IMG/VR virus record: IMGVR_UViG_3300045988_165974
Coordinates: 1-64,000 of that record
Direction: 5' to 3' (one strand)
DNA length: 64,000 nt
DNA from: a virus
The translations under genes were made by a program, and so were the position numbers. The notes under the pieces were generated by a model, which was given only the letters and a program-made list of their open reading frames with translations, was not told where the DNA came from and did no database searches. This document shows, piece after piece, positions 5,022 to 48,786 of this stretch. The stretch's first letter is position 1. Each line of letters begins with the position of its first letter.

Positions 5022-8000
5022 TTATGAATTTAATATACTCCAATATTTAGAGTTTCTTATATCTTTATCATCTGATTTAAATTTTGTAAAGTTAATTAAA
5101 ACTCCTCCTCCTGATATGTAATATTTAAATGCCGTTTTATAAGCCGATAAACTTCCATGATTATATGCCCATTTATAACTTTGAGTAAATGACCAACTCG
5201 TTCCATATCCTGAACCCCATGATAAAACATATATATCACTTCTAATAGGATTTCCAAAAATCTTTTCTGCATTAGAGTCAGAATAAGTTGACATATATAT
5301 ATCCATATCTGACATTCCAACCCCACAATCGTTGACTGTAAATATTCCGTTACAAGTTACAGATTTTCCATGTCCATCGACAATTTTTTTCCCTTTTAAT
5401 TTTGGTACATATACTTTCGTACCGTAAGGAACATTTAGCATTCCACAAGTTTTTCCGAGGTTTAATGGAATACTACAACCACTAGAACCGTCTCCACCAT
5501 AACTCGTACATCTTGCATTTTGGAATCTATAAATATAACTCTTGCCATCAATTGTTCCTGTTTCATTAAAACAATTCTTATATTGTTCTTTAGAATCTCC
5601 TTTTGTATTATCGCTTGGAATATCACTTATCTTTTTATCTGCTTTAATTAACTCTTCTAATCTAAAGAAAAACCATTGAGAATTTGTCTTTCTTTTTCTT
5701 TTTTGAATTCCTGATGAATACCCTATTGCTTCTGCAATATACCCATCTCCCATATATATAGCAGTATGGTGAGTATCACAGGTAAACATATTATTCTTTG
5801 TTAATTTAACATCATCGTTTGCAAACATAACAATATCTCCAGGTAATGCATTTTCAAATTTTGTATCTACATATCTCCAAGCTCTAGCATTATGTTCCTT
5901 AGCAGCATCTTGAATTGTTCCTCCAGCACATGATAGTCCTTTCATGAAATCAAGTCCTGCTGCTTGATAACAACAACCTACAAAGGAACTACAATCAAAT
6001 CCCCATTTTCCAACTCCTGGTTGTTTATATGTTTTCCTTTTCTTTTGAGAACGAATAGTTTCATAAGAACTTTTGATAACTTGTTTTTTATTATAGTCGA
6101 CAGTTCTATTGTATTGAGAATACCAAGCCTTACCATCAATACATAACTGGACAATTTCTTCTGCTCTTGCTACGATTTTTTGTCTCATTACACTTAATTT
6201 ACTGTTTTCATCATCTTCTATTGGGTCTTCTGGTTCTTCTGATACTTTATTTAAAACATCTAAGACATAACTATTTATATTATTTCTTAAAATCTTATAT
6301 CCATTTTCAGTAAGTAAATATCCATTTCTTGAATATGTAGTATTTAACAATTTGTCAATTGTTAATCCTGCTGAAACATTAACTGTTTTAATTGATTTTT
6401 CAGTACAATATTTTTCAATTTCGTCATTAAAATTAACTATATTTGAATTGGTTGTAATATAGTCATATATATCATTTTTATAAGTTATTGCGACAGGCAA
6501 TTCTTTTATGACTATAATGTCTTTAGAAGGATATTTAATAAGCAATTTATCTAATAAAGATTTATAATATAAAATTCCTAAACTTGTTAAATCATTTATT
6601 CCTAGCATTGTGAGAACGCAAGTTGGGTTAGAAGGGAATGTATCTATAATATTGTGTTCAGAAAAGTAATTTGCATTAATTTTACTTTTGGCATATACAC
6701 TTAAATCATCTAAAAAATGACTTTCTTTCATGTGTTCTATTCTATCGTCTCCAATAAGAAGAGAGCCTTTTATGTTCTCGTATTTTAAAGAAACTTCCTT
6801 TTGAGTTACAACAACTAAACAGCTAGCTACTATTTTTGTATTTTCAGTTGAAACAACATTTATTTTACAAGTTCCATTTGAAACTCCTGTAACAAGTCCT
6901 TCCGAGCTGACTGTGGCTATCTTAGTATCTGTTGAATAATAAGATAAGTTTTGATTTGTGGCATTTGTAGGAACAACACTTGCCACAAGATAACGAGTTT
7001 CATTTTTATCTAATAGTAAATCTTTTGTATTTAATCTTATTCCAGTAACTTGAACATCTTTAGTTTCGTCATAATCTCCAACAGTAACAATACATGAGGC
7101 AGACTTATTAAATTCTTTTGAAACAGCACTTATAACACATTTTCCATAATCTAAGCCTGTTACTTTTCCTCCTTCGACAACGGCAACTCTTTCATTACTA
7201 GACATCCAAAATACTTCATCGAGTTCAGGATTTGGAGGGACTATTGTCGCAGTAAGAGTATAAGATTCATCTGAATCTAAATTTAATTCTGTTTTATCTA
7301 ATGTAATACTTCTAATGTATTTTGTATCCGTAAGCTCTGGGGGATTTTTTGCCACATCTAAATCTATATCTGAAATTAAATCTGTACTTACTTTATTGTA
7401 TTTTTGATTATTCCATAGCCATTTATTTGTATTTATAATTTTTTTATTATTCTTTGCCTCTCTTAAAACATCTGAAATAAGCTTAGAGCTATCTTTATTT
7501 GTTTTCTTATTTGAAAAAGTTAGACTTAATGAATTGTCTTTATAGTTTTTTTGCCAACCAACTAAATATAAATAAGTTTCAACTTTTGTTTCTTTATCAT
7601 ATAAGGCAACTATATCTCCTAATCCTATTCTTCCATTCCAATTTCTTCTAAATCTATTCTCTATTAATCTATTTGTGAAATCTATTGAATCAATTGTAAA
7701 TTCTGTTGTAGGACGGCTTTTGAGCTTTAATTGTTGTCTACCTGTTTTTATAAGTTCATTTGCATCAATAAATGAATCATCTGAATAAGTATCGCAATAG
7801 ACATACTCTTTTAATTCATTTAACAAATCTTGTGTAAATAATAAATTTCCTTTTTCATCTGTAGAAGTTTCTCTTCTTAAAAGTATATTTAATTTATCTA
7901 TGTCATTAGATAGATTACTGTATTCTAGTTCTAATTGAGCTATTTCTACTGATAATTGAGCCTGTTCATCTTTAAGTATTTGTATCTGATTTTCATAAGA

Positions 8001-38427: not shown

Positions 38428-39738
38428 CGATTGTTATTAACTGTAAGTTTTTTACCTTACACTCTGGAGGTTTCCCTCATTTGAAGTTATCTAATCGGTA
38501 TGTTAATTCATACCCAGTCTAGCATACACCTTCACCCTCGTTTAACGTTAGGAGATTAGATTTTACTCTATATCTAATAATTCTTTAAATTATTGTGTCG
38601 GAGGCTCGTGTTAGTATTATATTCTGCATAACAGTTTCAACTATAATGCGTTACGAATTCTAAATCCTTTTAAAGACTTAGTTCATCTCGGTATTAGCAT
38701 ATTTATTAATATAGAATCGAACAGTAGTATCACTAACATTCAATTCTTTTGATATTTCATCTATTGTATTATTCTTTTTAAAATACATGTCAATAATTTT
38801 ATTTTTTATTTTTGAAGTAATCTTTTGATTATAATTATAAGGATTAGAAACACCTCTAAGATAACCATTTACAGTACTACTAGGCAATTTTACAATATTT
38901 ATAATTTCACATTCTCTTAGTCCTTGTTCTTTTAATCTCATAACTTCATCATATTTTTTTAATCTTTCTTCATATGCTATTTGTTTTGTATTTCTATTTT
39001 CATATACAACCTTTTCTACAACACTTGAAGTATATCCTTCTGATGAAACTATTTCACAAATTCTCATACCACTATCATACAATTTTAAAATTTTTTCATT
39101 TCTTTCTTGTATAAGCTTCTTTTTCATTTTGTACATTAGTGGGTTTAATTCAGGATTTATATATTTAAAAATATTTCCTCTCGCAATTTTATCAATTTGA
39201 GATTTTGAGGTATTAAAAATTTTAGCAATTTCTTTTCTATCCATTAAGTTATATATTAAAAGTTTAATTCTTCTTATATCAGATTCAGATAGTTTGGAAT
39301 GTTTCATTCTTTTAGTATTACTTAACTTGATTCTACTTTCTATTGACATAGTTCCACCACCTTCTCCTCCTTCGGTAAGATTATACCCAAAATTTGGATT
39401 AGCAGTATTGAATTTATCAATATAAAACATTTCTTTATCATTTAATTCTTCTTTAGTTGTCTCTTCTAGTAATTCAAAAATAAAACTTTCTTTTCCATAT
39501 TTATCAAAAGCATTTTGTAAATGACAATTATAATGTTTACCTCTTCTTAACAGACCTTTATGTGCTAATATTCTGTCTTTAACATGAATTGATTGACCTA
39601 TGTATTTTTTATTATCTTTTATATTTGTTATACAATAAATTCCTACCATATTCCCTCCGATTACATTAATAAATTTAGCCTCCACCGATTCCCCCCGATT
39701 TATTACCCTTATATTTCTATAAGGGAGGGCATTGGTCT
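38428..39738 (-). mobile_element. group-I-like intron (terL intron 1, family B 3' module) with a GIY-YIG endonuclease ORF
   Basis: The 5' exon ends AGGGGT. A candidate internal guide GCCCU lies 8 nt downstream. The intron ends GTTAATAACAATCG. It splits the Walker A motif. Confidence 0.7.
38678..39649 (-). CDS. intron-encoded GIY-YIG homing endonuclease with repeated C-terminal HTH modules
   Basis: Start trimmed to the ATG after GGAGGG (MVGIYCITNIKDNKKYIGQSIHVKDRILAH...NLTEGGEGG). Three or more HTH-like repeats follow (RKEIAKIFNTSKSQI, ICEIVSSEGYTSSVV, IDEISKELNVSDTTV). Confidence 0.8.
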   Translation of the reverse strand: MVGIYCITNIKDNKKYIGQSIHVKDRILAHKGLLRRGKHYNCHLQNAFDKYGKESFIFELLEETTKEELNDKEMFYIDKFNTANPNFGYNLTEGGEGGGTMSIESRIKLSNTKRMKHSKLSESDIRRIKLLIYNLMDRKEIAKIFNTSKSQIDKIARGNIFKYINPELNPLMYKMKKKLIQERNEKILKLYDSGMRICEIVSSEGYTSSVVEKVVYENRNTKQIAYEERLKKYDEVMRLKEQGLRECEIINIVKLPSSTVNGYLRGVSNPYNYNQKITSKIKNKIIDMYFKKNNTIDEISKELNVSDTTVRFYINKYANTEMN

Positions 39739-40994: not shown

Positions 40995-41606
40995 TTAGTC
41001 TATTTCAGGATTCTCAAAATTATATACATCATGTGTATAAAATCCTTTTTTCTTAGCTTCTTTATATCCAAAGAATTTTAGACATGTTTCTGATTCTCTT
41101 AATTCTTTTCTTGTAAGTTTAGTTTTCTCTAACACTATACTATCTAACTCTCTTGATAGTTGTTTATCTGCTTTTATTATTGATTCCATTTCTTCTAAGT
41201 ATCCAGTCAATCCAAGTCCTTGATATCCTGTTCCATGTATTGCAATTTGAGAAAATCTAGTACCTGTTCTTATATCACATGATAAAAATAAATAAACTGC
41301 CATACTTGCACATTGTCCTATTATATGTCCAATTACAGGAGCTTCTAATTCTTCCATTATACTAAGTATTGCACATCCTGCATTTACACTTCCTCCTGGG
41401 GAATTAAAGTAAATTTCAACAGGTTCTAAAGACTCTTTATACTTATCTGTTTTTTCCATATTTCTAGCAACTATTTCTTCATCTTCATCTATAATATCTC
41501 TAAGCGATTTGATGATTTCAATTGCCATTTTATTATCTATTACTCCATATATTTCTAATCTTCTGTTAACTTTGTCTTTTATTTTATCTTTATTGCAATC
41601 ACTCAT
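40995..41606 (-). CDS. ClpP-family (S14) serine protease-like protein
   Basis: IYFNSPGGSVNAGCAILSIMEELEAPVIGHIIGQCASMAVYLFL...QIAIHG follows the ClpP pattern, with candidate catalytic Ser in CASMA and His in IHG. Confidence 0.65.
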   Translation of the reverse strand: MSDCNKDKIKDKVNRRLEIYGVIDNKMAIEIIKSLRDIIDEDEEIVARNMEKTDKYKESLEPVEIYFNSPGGSVNAGCAILSIMEELEAPVIGHIIGQCASMAVYLFLSCDIRTGTRFSQIAIHGTGYQGLGLTGYLEEMESIIKADKQLSRELDSIVLEKTKLTRKELRESETCLKFFGYKEAKKKGFYTHDVYNFENPEID

Positions 41607-41622
41607 ATAAATGCCTCCAATC

Positions 41623-41886
41623 TTAGTATTCTGTATCTACTGTTATTGATACATTTATTTTTTCTTTATCAATGTAATTTTTTAATATTTCTTTTATTTC
41701 ATGAACATCCATATCATTTTTTGTATCTATTGTTAATTTTAAATCTTCTTCTTTTTCTAATTTGTCTAAGACTTCATCTAATCCATAGACATTTTCTCCT
41801 ACTTTTGTTTTTTCTACAACAATTAGTTCTCCATTTTCTTCTCTAATTGTTGCATCTTTAATTGTTAATTTTGATACTTTTTTCAT
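41623..41886 (-). CDS. hypothetical protein
   Basis: 87-aa acidic ORF with a good RBS context. No motif. Confidence 0.35.
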   Translation of the reverse strand: MKKVSKLTIKDATIREENGELIVVEKTKVGENVYGLDEVLDKLEKEEDLKLTIDTKNDMDVHEIKEILKNYIDKEKINVSITVDTEY

Positions 41887-41912
41887 AACATCATTTCTCC
41901 CTATTTTTTATT

Positions 41913-41986
41913 TGGTAGCAGAAAAAGGATTCGAACCTTTAGTTTTGGATAATGAGTCCAATGTGTTACCATTACACTATTCTGCG
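41913..41986 (-). tRNA. tRNA-Met/Ile2 (anticodon CAT), CCA encoded
   Basis: Manual cloverleaf: CGCAGAA-TA-GTGT..ACAC-A-TTGGA-CTCATTA-TCCAA-AACT-AAAGG-TTCGAAT-CCTTT-TTCTGCT-A-CCA. The 1:72 pair is a C:U mismatch. Confidence 0.7.
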
Positions 41987-42007
41987 ATAATATCTTTATA
42001 AAAAAAG

Positions 42008-42030
42008 AGAAGGAGTTACCAGTTCCTTCT
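42008..42030 (-). terminator. hairpin terminator after tRNA-Asp
   Basis: AGAGAAGGA-(9 nt)-TCCTTCTCT followed on the minus strand by T7. Adjacent to an inverted copy of the island box. Confidence 0.5.
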
Positions 42031-42031
42031 C

Positions 42032-42048
42032 TTGTATAACAGCAATTT
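42032..42048 (+). repeat. island box, copy 8 (opposite orientation)
   Basis: The plus strand reads TGTATAACAGCAATTTT directly 3' of the hairpin at 42008-42030. Confidence 0.5.
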
Positions 42049-42102
42049 TTTAGATAATACTATTTACTTATTTAGCAACTTCAACTCAACTAAATAAGCG
42101 AA

Positions 42103-42177
42103 TGGCGACCTACAAGGGAATCGAACCCTTATCTTTGGATAGACAGTCCAACATAATAACCTTTATACGAGTAAGCC
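42103..42177 (-). tRNA. tRNA-Asp (anticodon GTC), CCA encoded
   Basis: Acceptor GGCTTAC/GTAGGTC, anticodon arm TTGGA-CTGTCTA-TCCAA, T arm AAGGG-TTCGATT-CCCTT, then G-CCA. The D arm is weak. Confidence 0.65.
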
Positions 42178-42193
42178 ATAACTGGGATTGAAC

Positions 42194-42330
42194 TGGAAAC
42201 AGTTGGATTTGAACCAACACCCTCTTCTTGACCTATAAGATTTAATTTCTTCTTTTAAATATATTGCTGTATGTGTCCCATAATCCCACTAGACACATAA
42301 TTATTTGTGCTACCATTACACCATGTTTCC
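42194..42330 (-). ncRNA. tRNA-like gene with ~75-nt insert in the anticodon/variable region (box copy 7 inside)
   Basis: Acceptor GGAAACA/TGTTTCC, D arm GTGT-AATGGTA-GCAC, T arm GTTGG-TTCAAAT-CCAAC. Between the D and T arms are 90 nt including the hairpin ATGTGTC-(14)-GACACAT + ACAGCAAT. No CCA is encoded. Confidence 0.55.
42261..42279 (-). repeat. island box, copy 7
   Basis: The minus strand reads GGGACACATACAGCAATAT. Confidence 0.6.
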
Positions 42331-42453
42331 ATATTCGAGAGAGGAAATTATTCCTCTCTGTTTGTATATCTTGGAGGTTTTAAAATGATGAATAATAATT
42401 ACAATACACTTATTTATATTTTCAAAATGTTTTGTGGTTGAAAAATTAAATTA

Positions 42454-42473
42454 ATATTGCTGTATGTGTATTT
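42454..42473 (-). repeat. island box, copy 6
   Basis: The minus strand reads AAATACACATACAGCAATAT, starting at the stop codon of the Ro60-like gene. Confidence 0.6.
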
Positions 42474-42476
42474 ATA

Positions 42477-43991
42477 TTATACAGTTATGCAAGAATATCT
42501 TTCTTGATTTACTGCTTCCATCATTAATTCATACCCTGTTTTACCTGTTAATATTATTTCAAATGTAGATGGTGAAAATCCACTTACATATGAAATTCTT
42601 CCACTTCCTAGCATTGGAATATTATTTTGTCTTGCATCGACATTCCAATATATTAAATGTGGTATTTCATATCCATGTGATTGCCATTTTTTAGCTATTG
42701 ATTCCATTAATGTTTCATGTGAGCTATATTTTTGTTCACTTCTACTACTTCTCCAGCTCCAACAATTGAATTCATCAACTCCATTGTCAAATTCCATATC
42801 TGAAATTATAGCAATATTTTGTGGCAAATCTTCTTGAGATAAATTATTTTTTAATGCAGTATTTAATACTAAATCAAATACAGATTCAATATTTGTATTT
42901 TCACATAAATTAGTATCGTATATTCTTCTAACTTTATCTACAAAGTCAATTCCTTCAACTTCTACTAATCTAGCCTTTCTACTAAAACTTATGTAATGGT
43001 CTTTAAATGGACCTTTATTTCTTTCTGCACAATAAATTCCAAGTGAAATTGCTACATTTATTGGAGTCCCCCACATAGAACCTGATGTATCTACAACAGG
43101 TAATAAACTACAAGATTTCCCATTAAAGTAATCTTTTAAATTATCCCAATATTTATTTACAACATTTCTTTCAGTAGTTGAAGTTGAGAAACTATGTCTT
43201 AGTCCAATAGCTTTTTCTACGACTTCATAAGGATATAATGTAGCTGCATTTACAGTAGTCTTATCACTATTCATAAAAGCACTATATCTTTCTTCACAAT
43301 GTCTTTCAAAAGCTTTTCTATATTTAAGTCCTGCTTTACTTGGAAGTTTATCAAATTCTATTTCATGCCAATTATTAGAACTCATTTGTGTTTCAACTAA
43401 TCTTATATGATTTCTTAATTTCACTAATGTTTTTCTATATTTTTTAGCATTCATATTCAACTTTTTAGCAAAATATTTAGCTTTAAGTTTAGTATTAACA
43501 CTACTTGCTCCAAGTGAAGGCATCCACTTAGCTAATAAAGATATTGGTTTATTATTGTTCATATCTTTAAGGTCTGTTTCTAATTGATTTTTAACAATAG
43601 ATAAAACTTCTTTTTCGAACTTAGAACCTTTATATCCTAATTCTAATAAATCGTCCCATCTCCCAAACTCTGCAAAATAAATTAAATTCTTTTTTAATGC
43701 TTTAGAATTATTTTTTTCTAACCATTTTGTTATAACTCTAAATAATCTTCTTTCACCTTGTCCTCCTCGGACATCTCTAAAATAAAATAATAATTTCATT
43801 GATATTAAAGGATTTTCTTTATATGCTTTTTTAAATTGTAAAATTACATCTTCTTCACTACGATTTCTCATAGCTCCCCCAAAAGCGAAAAAATCTAAAC
43901 AATTACTAAAAGTAGTAACATGAGTAGTAGCTCCGTTTTCAGTTAAAGTATAATTTTCTTCTTCTTTTAAATTTCTTAAAAGTTTATTCAT
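42477..43991 (-). CDS. Ro60/TROVE-like RNA-binding protein with C-terminal vWA domain (DUF2828-type architecture)
   Basis: The N-terminus TLTENGATTHVTTFSNCLDFFAFGGAMR...LFYFRDVRGGQGERRLF has the TROVE/DUF2828-like pattern. The C-terminal vWA carries the MIDAS motif LLPVVDTSGSMWG. 504 aa. Confidence 0.6.
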   Translation of the reverse strand: MNKLLRNLKEEENYTLTENGATTHVTTFSNCLDFFAFGGAMRNRSEEDVILQFKKAYKENPLISMKLLFYFRDVRGGQGERRLFRVITKWLEKNNSKALKKNLIYFAEFGRWDDLLELGYKGSKFEKEVLSIVKNQLETDLKDMNNNKPISLLAKWMPSLGASSVNTKLKAKYFAKKLNMNAKKYRKTLVKLRNHIRLVETQMSSNNWHEIEFDKLPSKAGLKYRKAFERHCEERYSAFMNSDKTTVNAATLYPYEVVEKAIGLRHSFSTSTTERNVVNKYWDNLKDYFNGKSCSLLPVVDTSGSMWGTPINVAISLGIYCAERNKGPFKDHYISFSRKARLVEVEGIDFVDKVRRIYDTNLCENTNIESVFDLVLNTALKNNLSQEDLPQNIAIISDMEFDNGVDEFNCWSWRSSRSEQKYSSHETLMESIAKKWQSHGYEIPHLIYWNVDARQNNIPMLGSGRISYVSGFSPSTFEIILTGKTGYELMMEAVNQERYSCITV

Positions 43992-44058
43992 ATCATCTCT
44001 CCAATCAAGATACCTTTGTGTTTCCCTTTTGCTGATTGTATCTTTATATTATTTTTTA

Positions 44059-44132
44059 TGGCAGACTAAAATGGATTTGAACCATTATCTTCAAGATTCG
44101 GAGTCTCGATGTTTTACTTAAACCATTAGCCT
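44059..44132 (-). tRNA. tRNA-Arg (anticodon CCG), CCA encoded
   Basis: Acceptor AGGCTAA/TTAGTCT, D arm GTTT..AAAC, anticodon arm CGAGA-CTCCGAA-TCTTG, T arm AATGG-TTCAAAT-CCATT, then G-CCA. Confidence 0.7.
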
Positions 44133-44453
44133 ATAAAAATTTCTAGCTAGAAAATAATTAAAATTAATTAGATTAAAATTCATTATACTTGGTTAACTCC
44201 CTGATTTCTTTTAGTTGTGTATCAGGGGAAAACAACAAGTAATTACTATATTAACTTAATAGGATATTATACTTCCGACATTCTTATTAATCGCTATCGG
44301 ATGTGCGATTTATTTTGTTTGCAAACATCTTTAGTGTAGTTCCCGTAAAAAACTTACTTGCTATAAAAAAAACTTTCAGAAATCACTACACATGACAGAT
44401 TATGTAGGTGGGGTCTGTCTCCATACACCATACAAACGAGATGATTTTTTCTT

Positions 44454-44519
44454 TGGACTTAATCGGAATTGAACCGATAACATCATGCCTGATAATTTTC
44501 CCCATTAAACTATAAGTCC
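44454..44519 (-). ncRNA. tRNA-like gene with truncated anticodon arm (66 nt)
   Basis: Acceptor GGACTTA/TAAGTCC and T arm ATCGG-TTCAATT-CCGAT are perfect. The anticodon arm is reduced to ATCA-GGCA-TGAT. No CCA is encoded. Confidence 0.45.
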
Positions 44520-44525
44520 ATATAA

Positions 44526-44597
44526 TGACCTATGAGGGAATTGAACCCTCGCCCTCACCGTGAAAGGGTGATGTCTTAGCCACTTGACTAATAGGTC
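44526..44597 (-). tRNA. tRNA-Glu (anticodon TTC)
   Basis: GACCTAT-TA-GTC..GAC-A-TCACC-CTTTCAC-GGTGA-GGGC-GAGGG-TTCAATT-CCCTC-ATAGGTC-A. All stems are canonical. Confidence 0.85.
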
Positions 44598-44602
44598 ATG
44601 CT

Positions 44603-44678
44603 TGGTCTAAGTAGAGGGACTCGAACCCCCAGTCTCCACATCCCAAATGTGGCGGTCTACCAAATTAACCTATACCTA
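44603..44678 (-). tRNA. tRNA-Pro (anticodon TGG), CCA encoded
   Basis: CTAGGTA-TA-GGTT..GACC-G-CCACA-TTTGGGA-TGTGG-AGACT-GGGGG-TTCGAGT-CCCTC-TACTTAG-A-CCA. Confidence 0.85.
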
Positions 44679-44777
44679 GATATTAGAGTCTAGCATCAAA
44701 ATACTAGGCTTAATCATAACAATAATTTTTAATCAAGACTCTATTTAATACTCGTTTTTAACAGAAACGTAATTAAT

Positions 44778-44797
44778 AAATTGCTGTTAGAGTCTTT
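44778..44797 (-). repeat. island box, copy 9 (55 nt downstream of the iscB stop)
   Basis: The minus strand reads AAAGACTCTAACAGCAATTT. Confidence 0.55.
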
Positions 44798-44851
44798 TTA
44801 TAAATATTTAGCCAGAAAACCCATTCCCTTTAGGTGATGGGATGAATGGCG

Positions 44852-46114
44852 TTAAATTGCTACTGTCTGTACCATTTGTGATGTTCTTGCAGTGACTCGC
44901 TTACAGTTACTTAACTTTGGCGTTTTAAAACCTCTTGGCATTGCTGAAAAAACAATCTTATTCCCATCAATGTCCATAAGAATTGCATATCCTGTAAACA
45001 TTCTTCCCTTAATAAAGTATTCCTTGCCAAAGTATTTTACTTTGTCATATTTTCTAAAACCGTATATTTTACCAGTTGTAATAGGCTGTTCTGAACGAAC
45101 ACCTTTTGTTTTTCGAAAATCACCATCAGAAACACATTTCTTTTTGTAAAGATTACTCCTTACATAAAAAGCATTCCCTTGTGTTGATATAGTACAAGCA
45201 TCATAATAATGTTTTTTGTCTATCCCTAAATGTAAACGATTAGTCTTTGTCACATATCCAAAAGTTTCAATAGCATTTGGATAGAATCTGAAAAGCTGCT
45301 TACGGATAGAATTCATTTGCGTAGCATATTTAAGATTACCCTTAACTTTACCGCTTAATTTAGGGTTAATCTTCTCACTATGTAAATCTTTATGACAGGT
45401 GTGACATAAAGTAATTAAATTACTTTCTTCGTCAGAACCACCTTGACTACGAAATACAATATGATGAACTTCTAATTTGCTATCCTTATGCTTGCCTTTA
45501 CAATATTGACAAGTATAGTTATCTCTATTAAGTACCATTGCTTTTGTATTTTCAAATCCATAGTTAACACCTTTCTGATACCCCCAATGTCTAACCTTGG
45601 AATTTGCAAGTATTGGATTTTTCATTAAATGCATATCAAACTTCCCTGTTTCAAATACTAAAGTTGTAATTGGTAAAATAGATTTAATATATTCTATTTC
45701 CTTTACATGACTATGAAGTTTGCTCTGCATTGTAGGACTAAATCTATCCTTTCTAATAGAATTTGCACGATTTAACCATCTTGCTTTTCTATAACGAGTT
45801 TTACGATTTCGTCTGTTTCTACGATACTTTGCTCTTTGTGTCATTTTGTTAGTAATGTCGTTTCTTACAACAATTTCCGACATATAAACAATATTTCCTT
45901 TTTCATCTGATACTGCTGTTCCTATTGTTCCACTACCTGTATCTACACCTAAAATTAAATCTTGAGTGTAGTTTGTACTGTCATACAATAGTTTAATTGT
46001 AAACGGACAACGACTAACAACTTTAGCTTTTCTATCTTTTAACAGATGTCTGATTTTCCCATACCTATTCGTAGGCATAAGTGGTTGTCCATCTTTGTTT
46101 AATACATATACCAT
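44852..46114 (-). CDS. iscB: IscB (OMEGA-family RNA-guided RuvC/HNH nuclease)
   Basis: PLMP domain (KDGQPLMPT). RuvC-I ILGVDTGSGTIG. Arg-rich bridge helix RAKYRRNRRNRKTRYRKARW. HNH CQYCKG...LEVHHIV...NLITLCHTCHKDLH. RuvC-III KHYYDAC. 420 aa. Confidence 0.9.
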   Translation of the reverse strand: MVYVLNKDGQPLMPTNRYGKIRHLLKDRKAKVVSRCPFTIKLLYDSTNYTQDLILGVDTGSGTIGTAVSDEKGNIVYMSEIVVRNDITNKMTQRAKYRRNRRNRKTRYRKARWLNRANSIRKDRFSPTMQSKLHSHVKEIEYIKSILPITTLVFETGKFDMHLMKNPILANSKVRHWGYQKGVNYGFENTKAMVLNRDNYTCQYCKGKHKDSKLEVHHIVFRSQGGSDEESNLITLCHTCHKDLHSEKINPKLSGKVKGNLKYATQMNSIRKQLFRFYPNAIETFGYVTKTNRLHLGIDKKHYYDACTISTQGNAFYVRSNLYKKKCVSDGDFRKTKGVRSEQPITTGKIYGFRKYDKVKYFGKEYFIKGRMFTGYAILMDIDGNKIVFSAMPRGFKTPKLSNCKRVTARTSQMVQTVAI

Positions 46115-46117
46115 AAA

Positions 46118-46435
46118 CAGATATTCCTTTCATTAAATTAAATTAATAACTCAGCTACACAAGTAACTGTTATGCGTACTATACTGTACTGTTACCATAC
46201 AGTTGTTTCGACTTCAACTCGACAATGATATAAAGGCTTTTTACATATACATTACAAGGCTGTTCTTACTCTGACCTAACTTAAATGTATACGATAGAGC
46301 AATGGTCTGTTGCGTCAACCAAAGGTATCATGACTTAAATATCGTAGCCATCATTTCTGTGGCTTAGTCTGGTGAACCATTTAACAGAAGCCCATAAGCT
46401 TTAGCTTGTGGGTAGTTCACTTAATTATTCCTGGA
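46118..46435 (-). ncRNA. candidate IscB omega RNA (structured 5' leader of iscB)
   Basis: 320 nt ORF-free region directly upstream of iscB. It has nested stems, e.g. GTGAAC...GTTCAC enclosing CCCACAAGCT-AA-AGCTTATGGG. Upstream is a possible promoter, TTGAAA-N16-TAATTA. IscB loci are known to encode their guide RNA here. Confidence 0.6.
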
Positions 46436-46497
46436 AGGAGATTTTTCAATTACAATGCACAAATATTATTAATAAAATCCTTTTTTTATCATAAACA

Positions 46498-46517
46498 TAA
46501 TTGCTGTATGTGCATTT
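46498..46517 (-). repeat. island box, copy 5 (~65 nt upstream of the candidate omega RNA)
   Basis: The minus strand reads AAATGCACATACAGCAATTA. Confidence 0.6.
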
Positions 46518-46653
46518 AATTATATTAACTTTAAGAAGGTACTTATCAAGACACTAAACATTATAAATATGAAACTTCCTAGAATTGTTCAATTTATTTT
46601 GAGGATTTGAACCTCTAAAGCACTTGTTTATTGACTTATTTACCTATTTGAAT

Positions 46654-46673
46654 TAATTGCTGTAAGTGTCTTT
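46654..46673 (-). repeat. island box, copy 4
   Basis: The minus strand reads AAAGACACTTACAGCAATTA, 23 nt after the preceding tRNA-like gene. A T-arm-like GAGG-TTCAAAT-CCTC lies 40 nt downstream. Confidence 0.6.
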
Positions 46674-46695
46674 TGAATGTATATTTTTAGAACAG

Positions 46696-46811
46696 GACGG
46701 GAAGTAGGAGTCGAATCTACAACCTACGGCTTAAATGGCAAATTAAAATGCTGTTAGTGTATCCCTTCTATACACATATTACGTTGCTCTACCCGTTGAG
46801 CTATTCCCGTC
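46696..46811 (-). ncRNA. tRNA-like gene with ~45-nt insert in the anticodon arm (box copy 3 inside)
   Basis: Acceptor ACGGGAA/TTCCCGT, D arm GCTC-AACGGGTA-GAGC, T arm GTAGA-TTCGACT-CCTAC (one A:C mismatch). Only 3 bp of the anticodon stem remain (ACG/CGT). The insert holds the hairpin GTGTAT-(7)-ATACAC + TAACAGCAT. Confidence 0.5.
46745..46765 (-). repeat. island box, copy 3
   Basis: The minus strand reads GGGATACACTAACAGCATTTT. Confidence 0.55.
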
Positions 46812-46818
46812 ATAATGT

Positions 46819-46936
46819 TGCCGAAGAATAGATTTGAACTATTATCCTATAGCTTCCCTGTTTGAAATTGCTGCTTATGTATTTATCAATACATCTATTT
46901 ATTGGCTATTGCTCCAACCATTTGAGCTACTTCGGC
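46819..46936 (-). ncRNA. tRNA-like gene with perfect cloverleaf stems but a 51-nt anticodon loop (box copy 2 inside)
   Basis: GCCGAAG-TA-GCTC-AAATGGTTG-GAGC-A-ATAGC-[51 nt, 46854-46904]-GCTAT-AGGAT-AATAG-TTCAAAT-CTATT-CTTCGGC-A. The loop contains the hairpin ATGTATT-GAT-AAATACAT + AAGCAGCAAT. Confidence 0.6.
46865..46884 (-). repeat. island box, copy 2
   Basis: The minus strand reads AAATACATAAGCAGCAATTT. Confidence 0.55.
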
Positions 46937-47002
46937 ATATTCTAGGGTAGAATTCCTCTACCCCATTTTTTAAACAAACAAAGAAAGAAACAGTAATAAC
47001 TT

Positions 47003-47044
47003 TGAGGTCTGTAGGATTTGAACCTACTGAAACCTTCGACCTCA
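47003..47044 (-). ncRNA. tRNA-like minihelix (acceptor stem + T arm only)
   Basis: TGAGGTC-GAAGGTTTCA-GTAGG-TTCAAAT-CCTAC-A-GACCTCA. There is no D or anticodon arm. It is preceded by ~140 nt of ORF-free sequence that starts at box copy 1. Confidence 0.4.
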
Positions 47045-47181
47045 CATTACTAGGGAAATTAATCCCTAGCATTCAAAAAGGGGAACAAAGAAATCAAACA
47101 ATGCACTATTTACATTCTTGCCAGTCATGTGGCATTTTTCAAAATCCAATTTGTTTTATTTTCTTCTCTTGTATATGTAAT

Positions 47182-47200
47182 AATTGCTGTGAGTGCATTT
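47182..47200 (-). repeat. island box, copy 1 (5 nt after the HU-like gene stop)
   Basis: The minus strand reads AAATGCACTCACAGCAATT. Confidence 0.6.
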
Positions 47201-47205
47201 ACCCC

Positions 47206-47490
47206 TTATATTTCTTTAGTTAATCTTTCTTTTGTACTCTTAGTGAATTTTATATAAGGTACTATTTTATCAGGTGTTTCATATTCATAACAACCTATTT
47301 GATTATCTATTTTACCTGCTCTACCTTTTCTTTCTTTAGTACCTATTTTTATACCACAAATTATTACTTCATCTCTATTTTCGATTACTCTATTTAATAA
47401 TCTTTCTAATCCGTCTACTACCTCTGCTGCTCTAACTTGTGTTATATCTAGTTCACTAGCTATTTCTTTTAACATATCTTTTTTTGTCAT
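47206..47490 (-). CDS. HU/IHF-family DNA-binding protein
   Basis: Start trimmed to the ATG after AGGAGA (MTKKDMLKEIASELDITQVRAAEVVDGLERLLNRVIENRDEVIICGIKIGTKERKGRAGK...). Typical HU fold pattern with a beta-arm RKGR. Confidence 0.7.
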   Translation of the reverse strand: MTKKDMLKEIASELDITQVRAAEVVDGLERLLNRVIENRDEVIICGIKIGTKERKGRAGKIDNQIGCYEYETPDKIVPYIKFTKSTKERLTKEI

Positions 47491-47592
47491 ATTCATTTCT
47501 CCTATCATTAAAAATTTTTAGAACTTCATTTCGGTAAGGAAAATACCGTCTTTTATCGTTCTTACATTTTTAATAAGGAGTTTTACTACCTT

Positions 47593-48786
47593 TTAACAAT
47601 GTTGCTTTGCACTATGTTTTTTATGTCTTTCCTCTGTCTCGCATTTTTTACACTTCGGTCTATATCTATCTTTGTTTTTTGAAAAGTGATGTATTAGTTT
47701 AGTTTCTCCACATTTAGAGCATTTTTTCCATGTTCCTTTTACAACATAAGTGTAATACCGTTCTCGGTACTCCTCCCAATATTTCTTCTCTATTACCTTA
47801 CAAATACTATTTATTGTTATGTTAACCAATTGTTGTTTCATATGTAAGATTTCTATTATCTGATAAGGTTTTACATTTCTTCTGTATAGATTTAAAACAT
47901 TCTGTTGATTCTTTGTAAAAGTACACCTACTAAGTACATCTTCAAAATCCATCATGACACAAACCATATCTGTATCATCTATTCCTTCATACTTCATTCT
48001 AAGTAAGCTTCTTATCTCTTTTTCTGTCGGAATATCAATTTCTTTAAACATCTGTGAACCAGTTGGGACTAAAGGACTTTTAAATGTTATTGGTCTTTCT
48101 AGCAATAATTTGCCATTATTTAAATCGTCTTTAACTCCATGAACTAGATAACTAAGTTCCATAGTTCCGTTTCCACTTTTCATTTTATCAATTAAGTGGA
48201 CATATAAATCGTAATAATTTTTTAAGACCTCGTGTTTTTCAATATCTTTCTTTTCAAACACAACATCTTTTACTTTATTATAATTATGTTCTACTGCTTG
48301 AAATATTGGAAAAGCTTCCCCATTATATGTTTCTTTATTATTTATATAAGGAACTCCTCCATTTCCTATCGCTAATTGATTCATAACTTTTTCTTCTTTG
48401 CAAGCTCTTCTAAACAGCTCTTTACTATTATAGATTTTATACTTTAATTCTTTCTTTTGTTGAACCTCTCCGTCTATTATGTGTTCCTTAGAATTAAGAA
48501 TATAAGTACCTAACCTCTCTAAATAGATTGCTACATTAGAAGTTGAATATAAGCTATCCTCTTTTGATAAGTGAATTTTTATTTTCTGTCTTTCTTCTGT
48601 ATCAAAAAGTTCCTCAAAGAATTCGTCATAAAACTCTTTTCCATTTATCTCATAAGTGCCTAACATATCTTTCACATATTTAACTCTATTGTCACTTCTT
48701 TGGATTGTATAGTCTAATTCATAATAATCTCTGATTGACTTCCCACACAGTTTTCCATAAAAATTGTTATTATGAAATTCATTCAA
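47593..48786 (-). CDS. hypothetical protein with C-terminal sigma-region-4-like HTH and zinc ribbon (possible transcription factor)
   Basis: FTKNQQNVLNLYRRNVKPYQIIEILHMKQQLVNITINSICKVIEK is HTH-like. The terminus is CSKCGE...CKKCE. Confidence 0.35.
   Translation of the reverse strand: MNEFHNNNFYGKLCGKSIRDYYELDYTIQRSDNRVKYVKDMLGTYEINGKEFYDEFFEELFDTEERQKIKIHLSKEDSLYSTSNVAIYLERLGTYILNSKEHIIDGEVQQKKELKYKIYNSKELFRRACKEEKVMNQLAIGNGGVPYINNKETYNGEAFPIFQAVEHNYNKVKDVVFEKKDIEKHEVLKNYYDLYVHLIDKMKSGNGTMELSYLVHGVKDDLNNGKLLLERPITFKSPLVPTGSQMFKEIDIPTEKEIRSLLRMKYEGIDDTDMVCVMMDFEDVLSRCTFTKNQQNVLNLYRRNVKPYQIIEILHMKQQLVNITINSICKVIEKKYWEEYRERYYTYVVKGTWKKCSKCGETKLIHHFSKNKDRYRPKCKKCETEERHKKHSAKQHC

Follow-up and report, generated by a model that had tools for sequence, protein, structure and literature searches.

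Why would a virus of bacteria carry a gene for a protein built like Ro60 among its tRNA genes, and which RNAs might such a protein bind? The question is raised by IMG/VR virus record IMGVR_UViG_3300045988_165974, of which positions 1 to 64,000 were analysed (this whole stretch of 64,000 nucleotides, nt, is referred to as the window) and in which a minus-strand gene for a protein of 504 amino acids (aa) lies between tRNAs and aberrant tRNA-like RNAs. Ro60-Y RNA particles, familiar from animals and from a minority of bacteria, have only begun to be investigated in the context of phage infection. A first-pass annotation, made from the letters of the window, had interpreted the locus as a possible phage Ro-like ribonucleoprotein (RNP) that uses tRNA-mimic RNAs, and this interpretation is supported by the analyses described here. 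The reading that we favour, with somewhat more confidence than doubt, is that the protein is Ro-like, that its ligands are phage RNAs sharing a module made of a stem and a loop, and that together they protect the infection.

The open reading frame (ORF) begins with ATG and ends with a TAA codon at 42479-42477. All of the motifs quoted in the first-pass annotation are present in its translation, namely TENGA (aa 17-21), LDFFAFGGAMR (aa 32-42) and FRDVRGGQGERR (aa 71-82) in the N-terminal part and VVDTSGSM (aa 299-306) in the von Willebrand factor A (vWA) part, and the relation to DUF2828 proteins that it had mentioned agrees with Pfam, with matches to DUF2828 (E = 2.5e-34, 119.3 bits, cutoff 29) and to DUF7788 over aa 298-487 (E = 1.7e-36, 126 bits, cutoff 27.1). 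PHROG 850 (phrog_850, 'RNA-binding protein') matches aa 1-500 with an E-value of 4e-127. In two family alignments, A1 with 63 sequences and A4 with 116 diverse sequences, the residues D301, S303, S305, T366 and D398 of the metal ion-dependent adhesion site (MIDAS) are invariant; the family also has a conserved RDxRGGxGER motif, in which R72, D73, R75, G77, G79, E80 and R81 are invariant or nearly so, and several conserved Arg and Lys residues. As an ordinary member, the gene belongs to a large family that has been annotated before and comprises at least 6691 representative clusters at 50% identity (E <= 1e-3). Homologues were found in 711 isolated-phage records, each at most 41% identical to the window protein, and a megablast search with 24 kilobases (kb) of the window against isolated phages gave no match. 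Some members, from cluster L mycobacteriophages, are already annotated as 'Ro-like RNA binding protein'.

The likeness to Ro60 was seen in the predicted fold. The AlphaFold2 model (predicted local distance difference test, pLDDT, 81.1; predicted template modelling score, pTM, 0.73) is all-helical from about aa 30 to 283 and alpha/beta from 297 to 500. The comparison of such a model with Ro60 had been suggested in the first-pass annotation, and when it was made with Foldseek against the PDB, Ro60 proteins were the only full-length matches. The best of these was the structure 9KOP of Ro60 from Thermus phage phiLo (E = 1.1e-7, TMq 0.53), with which 525 columns were aligned, and the Xenopus Ro60 structures 1YVR, 1YVP and 2I91 were also matched over their full length with E-values from 2e-5 (1YVR, TMq 0.52) to 3e-4, while all lower-ranked matches were to the vWA domain alone (E > 5e-3, TMq about 0.2). 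Against BFVD, the model matched DUF2828/DUF7788 proteins of phages and giant viruses with template modelling (TM) scores reaching 0.82, and from a crAss-like phage a 'TROVE domain-containing protein' was matched over the full length (E = 8e-8, TMq 0.59). The Ro-likeness of the protein, which is not a new idea, is supported by these models at the level of the fold, and the DUF2828/DUF7788 family seems to form a second branch of the Ro-like proteins, one that has diverged in sequence.

The gene is embedded in an island in which all tRNAs are co-oriented with it (Table 1). ARAGORN identified tRNAs for Met, Asp, Arg(ccg), Glu and Pro, and Rfam added three tRNA matches, two of which measure 137 and 118 nt and are therefore interrupted. 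These two, the tRNA-like RNAs A and B, exceed the Rfam gathering score of 29 for RF00005; neither has a continuous anticodon arm with a 7-nt loop, and each contains a 44-nt insert. In RNA A, a hairpin-closed copy of the module described below, made up of the hairpin AUGUGUCU-loop-GGGACACAU and, after it, ACAGCAAU, takes the place of the anticodon arm. This RNA has no anticodon stem, and after subtraction of the insert a 95-nt unpaired variable region stays in the ARAGORN structure. RNA B carries its insert (hairpin AUGUAUU..AAUACAU and AAGCAGCAAU) in the anticodon loop, and the anticodon deduced for it, AUG, is abnormal. The insert of RNA C consists of the hairpin GUGUAU..AUACAC and UAACAGCAU. 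With these three RNAs on the gene strand, the first-pass picture of a gene set among aberrant tRNA-like RNAs proved accurate. Rfam recognised tRNA and HEARO among the window RNAs and no other family.

The closest relatives of the locus, L089-L092, encode a protein of 70% identity and are syntenic with the window, in the order sigma-like gene, HU, tRNAs, tRNA-Arg(ccg), the gene, about 310 nt, tRNA-Asp, tRNA-Met and a ClpP-like gene. RNA A is conserved in them 168-176 nt downstream of the gene, hairpin and ACAGCAAU insert included, and the comparison gives three compensatory pairs in the acceptor and T stems. A search with RNA A by nhmmer returned matches confined to the window's own clade, so this RNA is clade-specific, though its design is widespread.

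What the first-pass annotation had listed as copies of a 'box' is the loop of a conserved RNA module, consisting of an 8-bp covarying stem and a loop (N)UACAGCAA. The stem, 5'-(A/U)AGRCNNN...N'N'N'GYCU(U/A)-3', is closed by a conserved A.G mismatch, the loop (N)[U/A/C]ACAGCAA is unpaired and adjoins the stem on the 5' strand, and the extended consensus is AAAGAC-n-C-n-UACAGCAA. All seven exact copies of ACAGCAAT in the window fall within 42039-47190, whereas 2.3 would be expected over its whole length, and such clustering means that the box is no chance feature. It was first seen again in unannotated gaps beside the homologues of Enterococcus phiSHEF13 and Cronobacter LPCS28, and in 96 loci (1.63 megabases) the non-coding copies of YACAGCAA number 149 on the gene strand and 6 on the opposite one. 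On inspection, the bases 5' of the motif were complementary to a segment 40-170 nt downstream. When a perfect 7-bp Watson-Crick partner was required 10-260 nt downstream, it was found for 142 of 818 same-strand NNCAGCRA cores, compared with 16-28 when the arms were shuffled and with 11 of 675 cores on the opposite strand, and this strict test covered 75 distinct arm sequences; a laxer one (8 nt, one mismatch) had a background of about 50% and was replaced by it. The eighth pair, which had not been demanded by the search, is Watson-Crick in 120 of the 142 modules (87 A-U, 27 U-A). With loop offsets of 2-3 nt permitted, the count rose to 289 same-strand versus 27 opposite-strand modules in 97 loci. 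The box was also considered as a sigma-70-type promoter, and this was rejected because sigma-70 sites are not in excess in the island (35 against 31.5 expected) and the motif is conserved across unrelated hosts.

The module was found in more than one topology. Open modules contain inserts of three classes: a permuted tRNA-like domain (T arm, hairpin, D arm), a whole tRNA (for example at L004:6995, L023:383 and L081:4922), or a plain hairpin or AU-rich stretch. The hairpin-closed unit is a fourth topology and amounts to a circular permutation of this structure: a small loop closes the stem (GUCUUG-loop-AAGAC), NNACAGCAA comes next, and the unit as a whole occupies the anticodon arm, or its loop, in a tRNA scaffold. 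RNAs built in this way are the 'interrupted tRNAs'. At the homologue loci, 28 of the 50 short inserts in ARAGORN tRNA calls have this form, a hairpin with a CAGCAA element, and the intron-containing calls are on the gene strand in 79 cases out of 79. A plain regular expression for hairpin-closed modules gave no strand discrimination (34 versus 46); for these modules the ARAGORN-anchored count alone is informative. The co-occurrence of the gene with interrupted tRNAs in other phages, which the first-pass annotation had proposed to look for, is thus seen in these inserts and also in LPCS28, where, 0.5 kb downstream of the homologue, there are two unannotated interrupted tRNAs (L095:4868-5110; Rfam tRNA 56.9 and 40.9 bits). 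The first of them has a 48-nt insert according to ARAGORN, both inserts carry the hairpin CAAACUGAYAAGUUUG followed by UAUUCAGCAYU, and an open module is present at 5127-5261. The module and its topologies appear to be new: we found no published description in Rfam 15 or in the searchable literature, which is absence of evidence and not proof of novelty.

There are six open modules in the window, all on the minus strand and all inside the island, with none on the other strand, and two of them flank the gene itself. The module in the 5' untranslated region (5'UTR) reads AAGACAC-A-UACAGCAA...GUGUCUUG in L089-L092, where GACAC/GUGUC takes the place of the window's GAUAC/GUAUC, a compensatory change. 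The module behind the gene, AAUACAC-AU-ACAGCAAU, begins at 42472, 4 nt past the TAA stop codon, where the first-pass annotation had placed its sixth box copy. Its counterpart in L089-L092 is AAUGCAC.../...GUGCAUU, again a compensatory change (AUACAC/GUGUAU in the window versus AUGCAC/GUGCAU).

Both the tRNA array and the module are linked to the gene in other phages. In 80 IMG/VR loci with homologues 44-55% identical, 729 of the 730 tRNAs called by ARAGORN are on the strand of the gene, 702 upstream of it and 28 downstream, and upstream tRNAs are present in 65 of the 69 loci that have at least 4 kb of upstream flank. Because these loci may form one clade, independent lineages were checked too: of 13 reference phages, 12 have co-oriented tRNAs or tRNA-like elements no more than 3.5 kb from the gene. 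The gene is 612 nt past a 19-tRNA array in Bacillus phage Tsamsa, 243 nt past five tRNAs in Campylobacter CP8, inside the array in Ralstonia RSP15, and 165 nt ahead of it in the FelixO1-like phages SP116 and Bas63. Listeria P100plus has tRNAs upstream of the gene, mycobacteriophage MsGreen has one 1.2 kb upstream, the distance is 2 kb in Sinorhizobium phiM12, 2.3 kb in Staphylococcus S-CoN_Ph7 and 3.4 kb in the KVP40-like V09, and LPCS28 and phiSHEF13 have tRNAs or tRNA-like elements near the gene. The sole case with no tRNA near the gene is Fusobacterium phiKSUM.

In 12 of 13 lineages, the gene has a same-strand module less than 1 kb away. The nearest one is 5 nt away in the window, 17 in phiM12, 20 in S-CoN_Ph7, 23 in CP8, 36 in phiKSUM, 45 in MsGreen, 75 in P100plus, 93 in Tsamsa, 126 in phiSHEF13, 339 in SP116, 750 in LPCS28, 941 in RSP15 and 3160 in V09, and at least six lineages have a module in the 100 nt ahead of the start codon. 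In phiKSUM and in the IMG/VR loci L106 and L205 the module is upstream of the gene and there is no tRNA in the stretch examined, so the link to the gene is partly separable from the link to tRNA arrays. Unbiased scans of IMG/VR gave the same association from the other side: a DUF2828 gene was present, in the short stretch fetched, in 7 of 15 full-module loci found with AAAGACNNNTACAGCAA and in 26 of 56 found with AAGACACATACAGCAA, and in 18 of 30 where the stretch was at least 9 kb, always on the strand of the module. In this way the module is tied to the DUF2828 family in phages of at least five host phyla.

The candidate RNAs can be compared with those of known systems, which include bacterial Rsr with YrlA or Yrn1 and, with PNPase, the RYPER complex. 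The YrlA RNAs of bacteria and of mycobacteriophages are tRNA mimics, encoded on the same strand as Ro60 and within 4 kb of it, with a short conserved motif GNCGAA near the 5' end (Chen et al. 2014, PMC4201824). Several homologue loci presented YrlA matches at the modules: in MsGreen at 39.3 bits (E = 4e-5), 130 nt downstream of the gene; in phiSHEF13 at 44.9 and 34 bits, in the gap directly upstream of the gene; in phiM12 as a partial match at the module beside the gene; and in L049 at 33 bits, beginning at the module loop. Every one of the matches in homologue loci (33-45 bits) is below the Rfam gathering score of 69 bits. Like Ro60/Rsr, the window protein is predicted to combine a helical ring-type domain with a vWA domain containing the MIDAS, and the RNAs proposed as its partners come from genes on its own strand that are at most a few kb away; like YrlA, the module RNAs have a terminal stem, a short conserved motif and often a permuted tRNA-like domain (T arm, hairpin, D arm). 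They differ in that Ro60/Rsr belongs to the Pfam TROVE family, whereas the window protein belongs to DUF2828/DUF7788 with no match at the profile level, and in that the GNCGAA motif of YrlA is replaced by (N)UACAGCAA beside an AAGAC/GUCUU stem. Also unlike the RNAs of Ro60/Rsr, the modules occur in many copies per genome, interleaved with real tRNAs, they include hairpin-closed copies within tRNA scaffolds, and one copy is in the 5'UTR of the gene itself. The fold of the protein and the YrlA-like character of the neighbouring RNAs are two independent signals, and both suggest the same kind of particle.

Experiments have been published on three comparable proteins. The Ro60 of Thermus phage phiLo binds two Y-like RNAs, Yrl1 and Yrl2, encoded upstream of it, and also the host PNPase (PMC12135203). 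It resembles the window protein in being phage-encoded, in being its best structural match and in having Y-like RNAs just upstream; it differs in having been found as a Ro60 homologue in a UniProt search and in the CGAA motifs of its Yrl RNAs, a tRNA-array context is not described in the paper (PMC12135203), and in the Foldseek alignment the two proteins are 15% identical. The second protein, gp130 of phage Bas63 (MZ501086, 80319-81734), contains DUF2828 and DUF7788 as the window protein does and aligns with it by BLASTP at 1e-71, with 32% identity over aa 17-499. A PhageMaP preprint of 2024 described gp130 as structurally Ro60-like, with its gene immediately ahead of tRNAs, 'some of which are possibly Y RNAs', and showed that it counters the Ppl defence system (PMC11482910). 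The Ro-like idea, including the neighbouring 'tRNAs' as Y RNAs, has therefore already been published for this homologue, and the RNA module is not described there. Bas63 (JohannRWettstein) is a distant Felixounavirus on E. coli, in which the gene stands ahead of the array and not within it as in the window. We found four stem and CAGCAA modules in its array (L217:10073-10906), one of them framing a permuted tRNA-like domain. Two modules at L217:10695-10906 (MZ501086 82694-82905) overlap the minus-strand coding sequences (CDSs) bas63_0137 and bas63_0138, which are therefore probably spurious. The third, LeBron gp53, a homologue annotated as 'Ro-like RNA-binding protein', was moderately toxic when overexpressed in M. 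smegmatis (PMC13148394). LeBron gp53 and MsGreen gp54, both from cluster L, are homologues of the window protein at 33-35% identity, and this toxicity is the only experimental result for the cluster L group. MsGreen has two modules and its YrlA-like match within 250 nt downstream of the gene, and differs from the window in having a single tRNA nearby.

From these observations, we propose that a Ro60-like DUF2828/DUF7788 protein, with a ring-type helical N-domain and a vWA domain with an intact MIDAS, would be expressed from the tRNA-array transcription unit, and that its likeliest ligands would be phage-encoded RNAs with one shared recognition module. Such RNAs could take three forms: an open stem around a permuted tRNA-like domain, which is the architecture of YrlA, a Y RNA; an open stem around a whole tRNA or a plain insert; and a hairpin-closed copy set into a tRNA scaffold at the anticodon arm or loop, as in the interrupted tRNAs of the window. 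By analogy with Ro60/Rsr-Y RNA particles, the protein would contact the stem and the loop, and the small stem-loop module is probably what it binds, while the tRNA-like part may be a handle for host factors that recognise tRNAs. Perhaps the protein also binds the module in its own leader, which is 4 nt from the ribosome-binding site (RBS) of the gene and would let it repress its own translation. The most likely output of the particle would be to protect the infection from host defence or from RNA damage; the anti-defence phenotype has been demonstrated for the homologue gp130. The predicted fold, the linkage in the genomes and the covariation of the stem come from the data presented here, and binding of RNA, autoregulation and the part played by the tRNA-like domains are inferred.

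A number of results weigh against this reading. The structural match to Ro60 is moderate, with TM-scores of 0.45-0.56 and a root-mean-square deviation (rmsd) of 8-12 Å, these being alignment scores alone. In Pfam, no TROVE (PF05731) match was obtained for the window protein at E <= 1 or for 10 reference-phage homologues at E <= 10, the latter matching only the DUF2828, DUF7788 and weak VWA_2 models. Neither phmmer nor hmmsearch with a family profile retrieved a Ro60 chain among the PDB sequences, and in hhalign comparisons with human Ro60 (sequence validated as 9NEN) the vWA/MIDAS region alone aligned, with the MIDAS opposite VDVSAS of Ro60 and E-values of 0.067 for the 63-sequence and 0.012 for the 116-sequence profile. 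Homology to Ro60 at the sequence level was accordingly rejected beyond that region, and the Ro60/Rsr architecture claimed in the first-pass annotation stands for the predicted fold and not for sequence profiles. Rfam gave no Y_RNA or YrlA (RF02553) match at E <= 1 in positions 41500-47600 of the window. In V09 there is no module closer than 3 kb to the gene, and 6 of 86 loci are without any module. The tRNA region of T4 (L218) contains no module, and it is a single control (n = 1). The link between gene and module is one of genomic co-occurrence, partly confounded with the tRNA arrays in which both reside. Lastly, gp130 alone, on a plasmid or inserted in T7, restores plaquing on Ppl hosts (PMC11482910). 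As T7 has no module RNAs and is rescued nonetheless, the anti-Ppl activity at least needs no phage module RNA.

T4 is not known to carry a DUF2828 gene. Its rnaC and rnaD lie at L218:3909-4172, and rnaD (species 2) has CACAGCAG near its 3' end, a weak resemblance to the module.

The rescue of T7 speaks for another explanation, that the protein is a stand-alone anti-defence factor working by protein-protein contact, for example MIDAS-mediated binding of Ppl, and that the modules share its neighbourhood as unrelated 'punctuation' of the array, that is, as processing, stability or transcription signals for host enzymes. The MIDAS is the most conserved feature of the family, most modules are situated between tRNAs, with 50 of 225 starting within 25 nt of a tRNA 3' end, and V09 has the gene with no module nearby, all of which also speak for it. 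We nevertheless consider this explanation unlikely. Modules adjoin the gene even where no tRNA is near, as in the 5'UTR of phiKSUM and in L106 and L205, and they recur just ahead of the start codon in at least six lineages. The motif is conserved from phages of Actinobacteria to those of Campylobacter, a spread that speaks against promoters or RNase sites specific to a host. Sigma-70 promoters are not in excess in the island, and the Ro60-like fold and the YrlA-like RNAs are independent signals that agree with each other.

Less probable again is a role of the modules as signals for excision or splicing, with the interrupted tRNAs as true precursors of functional tRNAs; the protein would then serve a phage pathway of tRNA maturation as its recognition or chaperone subunit and bind the stem and loop, and nucleases together with a ligase (RtcB in some relatives) would remove the insert or release the tRNA. 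RNA B does become a clean 77-nt cloverleaf once its 44-nt insert, at the canonical position 37/38, is taken out, and some open modules frame whole tRNAs. RtcB is encoded upstream of the island in L090 (L090:1-1809) and L092 (L092:108-2249), with a LAGLIDADG-type insertion, and 1.3 kb downstream of the homologue in Listeria P100plus (L083:6851-8062), and small ORFs resembling PDDEXK_5 (PF11645) nucleases were found in the tRNA arrays upstream of the DUF2828 gene at 17 loci (e.g. L089:3005-3448). However, RtcB is absent from the 64-kb window and from 80 of 80 IMG/VR loci; RNA A, with its missing anticodon stem and the unpaired region that stays after removal of the insert, is conserved as a whole element; the anticodon of RNA B is not a normal one; many modules frame no tRNA; and no bulge-helix-bulge motif is evident. 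The tRNA repair that the first-pass annotation had listed among possible roles thus finds some agreement in L090, L092 and P100plus and none in the window or the 80 IMG/VR loci, and an RNA-repair operon (Rsr-YrlA-RtcB) was rejected as a general feature. More doubtful still is the specific version in which both the interrupted tRNAs and the tRNAs framed by the stem are precursors and the Ro-like protein, reading the stem and UACAGCAA, is the recognition subunit of a phage-encoded, protein-guided tRNA excision and splicing that nucleases and an RtcB-type ligase complete; if true, bacterial viruses would have a way to remove tRNA introns that depends on no group I ribozyme and not on the bulge-helix-bulge endonuclease of archaea. 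Finally, that the resemblance to Ro60 is superficial and the protein a generic combination of helical and vWA domains with no RNA role would suit the missing sequence-level link to TROVE and TM-scores of only about 0.5 at this rmsd, but is hardly credible when Ro60 proteins are the sole full-length matches in the PDB and rank above every vWA-only match, a phage TROVE protein is matched over its full length as well, YrlA-like RNAs adjoin homologues in three lineages, and the PhageMaP authors independently reported the structural similarity of gp130 to Ro60.

Table 1. Features of the gene and its tRNA island in the window (positions of the 64,000-nt stretch).
Feature	Position	Strand	Remarks
CDS, DUF2828 + DUF7788 protein	42477..43991	minus	Ro60-like predicted fold: helical N-domain about aa 1-285, vWA about aa 295-504
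DTSGS codons (aa 301-305)	43077..43091	minus	DxSxS part of MIDAS; T366 and D398 complete the metal site
5'UTR module	44007..44044	minus	AAGAUAC-AAUCAGCAA-...-GUAUCUU; 3' arm ends 4 nt before GGAGAG RBS
Post-stop module ('box copy 6')	42403..42472	minus	AAUACAC-AU-ACAGCAA ... GUGUAUU
Module M1	47101..47198	minus	AUGCACU-CACAGCAA ... AGUGCAU; begins just past stop codon of HU-like gene
Module M2	46549..46671	minus	AGACACU-UACAGCAA ... AGUGUCU; T-arm-like hairpin in insert
Module M3	46455..46515	minus	AUGCACA-UACAGCAA ... UGUGCAU
Module M4	44736..44795	minus	AGACUCU-AACAGCAA ... AGAGUCU
tRNA-like RNA A	42194..42330	minus	Rfam tRNA 44 bits; acceptor, D and T arms; ARAGORN and RNAfold
tRNA-like RNA B	46819..46936	minus	Rfam tRNA 53.3 bits; ARAGORN; clean cloverleaf
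tRNA-like RNA C	about 46696..46810	minus	acceptor, D and T arms; sequence reading and folding; no Rfam or ARAGORN call
Conserved hairpin	42337..42360	minus	between post-stop module and tRNA-like RNA A
tRNA-Arg(ccg)	44059..44132	minus	ends 67 nt before start codon; position kept in relatives
tRNA-Pro, tRNA-Glu, one further Rfam tRNA match	44454..44679	minus	upstream of gene; ARAGORN and Rfam
tRNA-Asp and tRNA-Met	41913..42177	minus	downstream of gene; hairpin and U-run between them

Other features of the island were observed beside these. Between two stem and UACAGCAA modules lies the gene of an IscB-type nuclease of 420 aa (44852-46420, minus strand; Pfam RRXRR and HNH), with its HEARO/omega RNA at 46207-46420 (103.9 bits); IscB is absent from the syntenic loci L089-L092 and therefore looks like a recent insertion. 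Downstream of module M1, at 47004-47043 on the minus strand, there is a stand-alone 'minihelix' of acceptor and T arm, GAGGUC...GUAGGUUCAAAUCCUAC...GACCUC. The 320 nt between two tRNAs at 44133-44453 (minus strand) contain no ORF, Rfam match or module, and in relatives this position holds tRNA-Ile, Gln and Trp. The sole plus-strand copy of ACAGCAAT (42039-42046) adjoins a minus-strand hairpin with a U-run, AGAGAAGGA...UCCUUCUCU UUUUUU, at 42005-42046, and this structure between tRNA-Asp and tRNA-Met is probably a terminator. Just downstream of the island, where the packaging genes are found, an ORF at 38678-39685 (minus strand) encodes a homing endonuclease of GIY-YIG type (PHROG 7168).

Two other RNAs were encountered in the arrays of DUF2828 loci. 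ROOL RNA is, like the modules, a non-coding RNA of phage tRNA arrays, and it was found near a DUF2828 gene at L049:1965-2561 (301.8 bits) and, at 86 bits and so below the gathering score, in Listeria P100plus at L083:2468-3019, 1 kb upstream of the homologue. It is about 580 nt long, has no sequence relation to the modules of 40-170 nt, and none was found in the window. A group I intron-like Rfam match of 37.7 bits, also below the gathering score, lies in the tRNA array at L081:5399-5702.

The family spans 711 isolated phages, including therapy-relevant phages of Listeria, Staphylococcus, Enterococcus and Campylobacter and FelixO1-like phages, and for its proteins the module is a concrete candidate RNA ligand with covariation support. 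The module also accounts for 'aberrant' or 'interrupted' tRNAs, for unannotated gaps in phage tRNA arrays and for some small ORFs that are probably spurious. Taken with the counter-defence phenotype of gp130, it makes directly testable the question of whether Y-like RNPs that mimic tRNAs act against host immunity or RNA damage.

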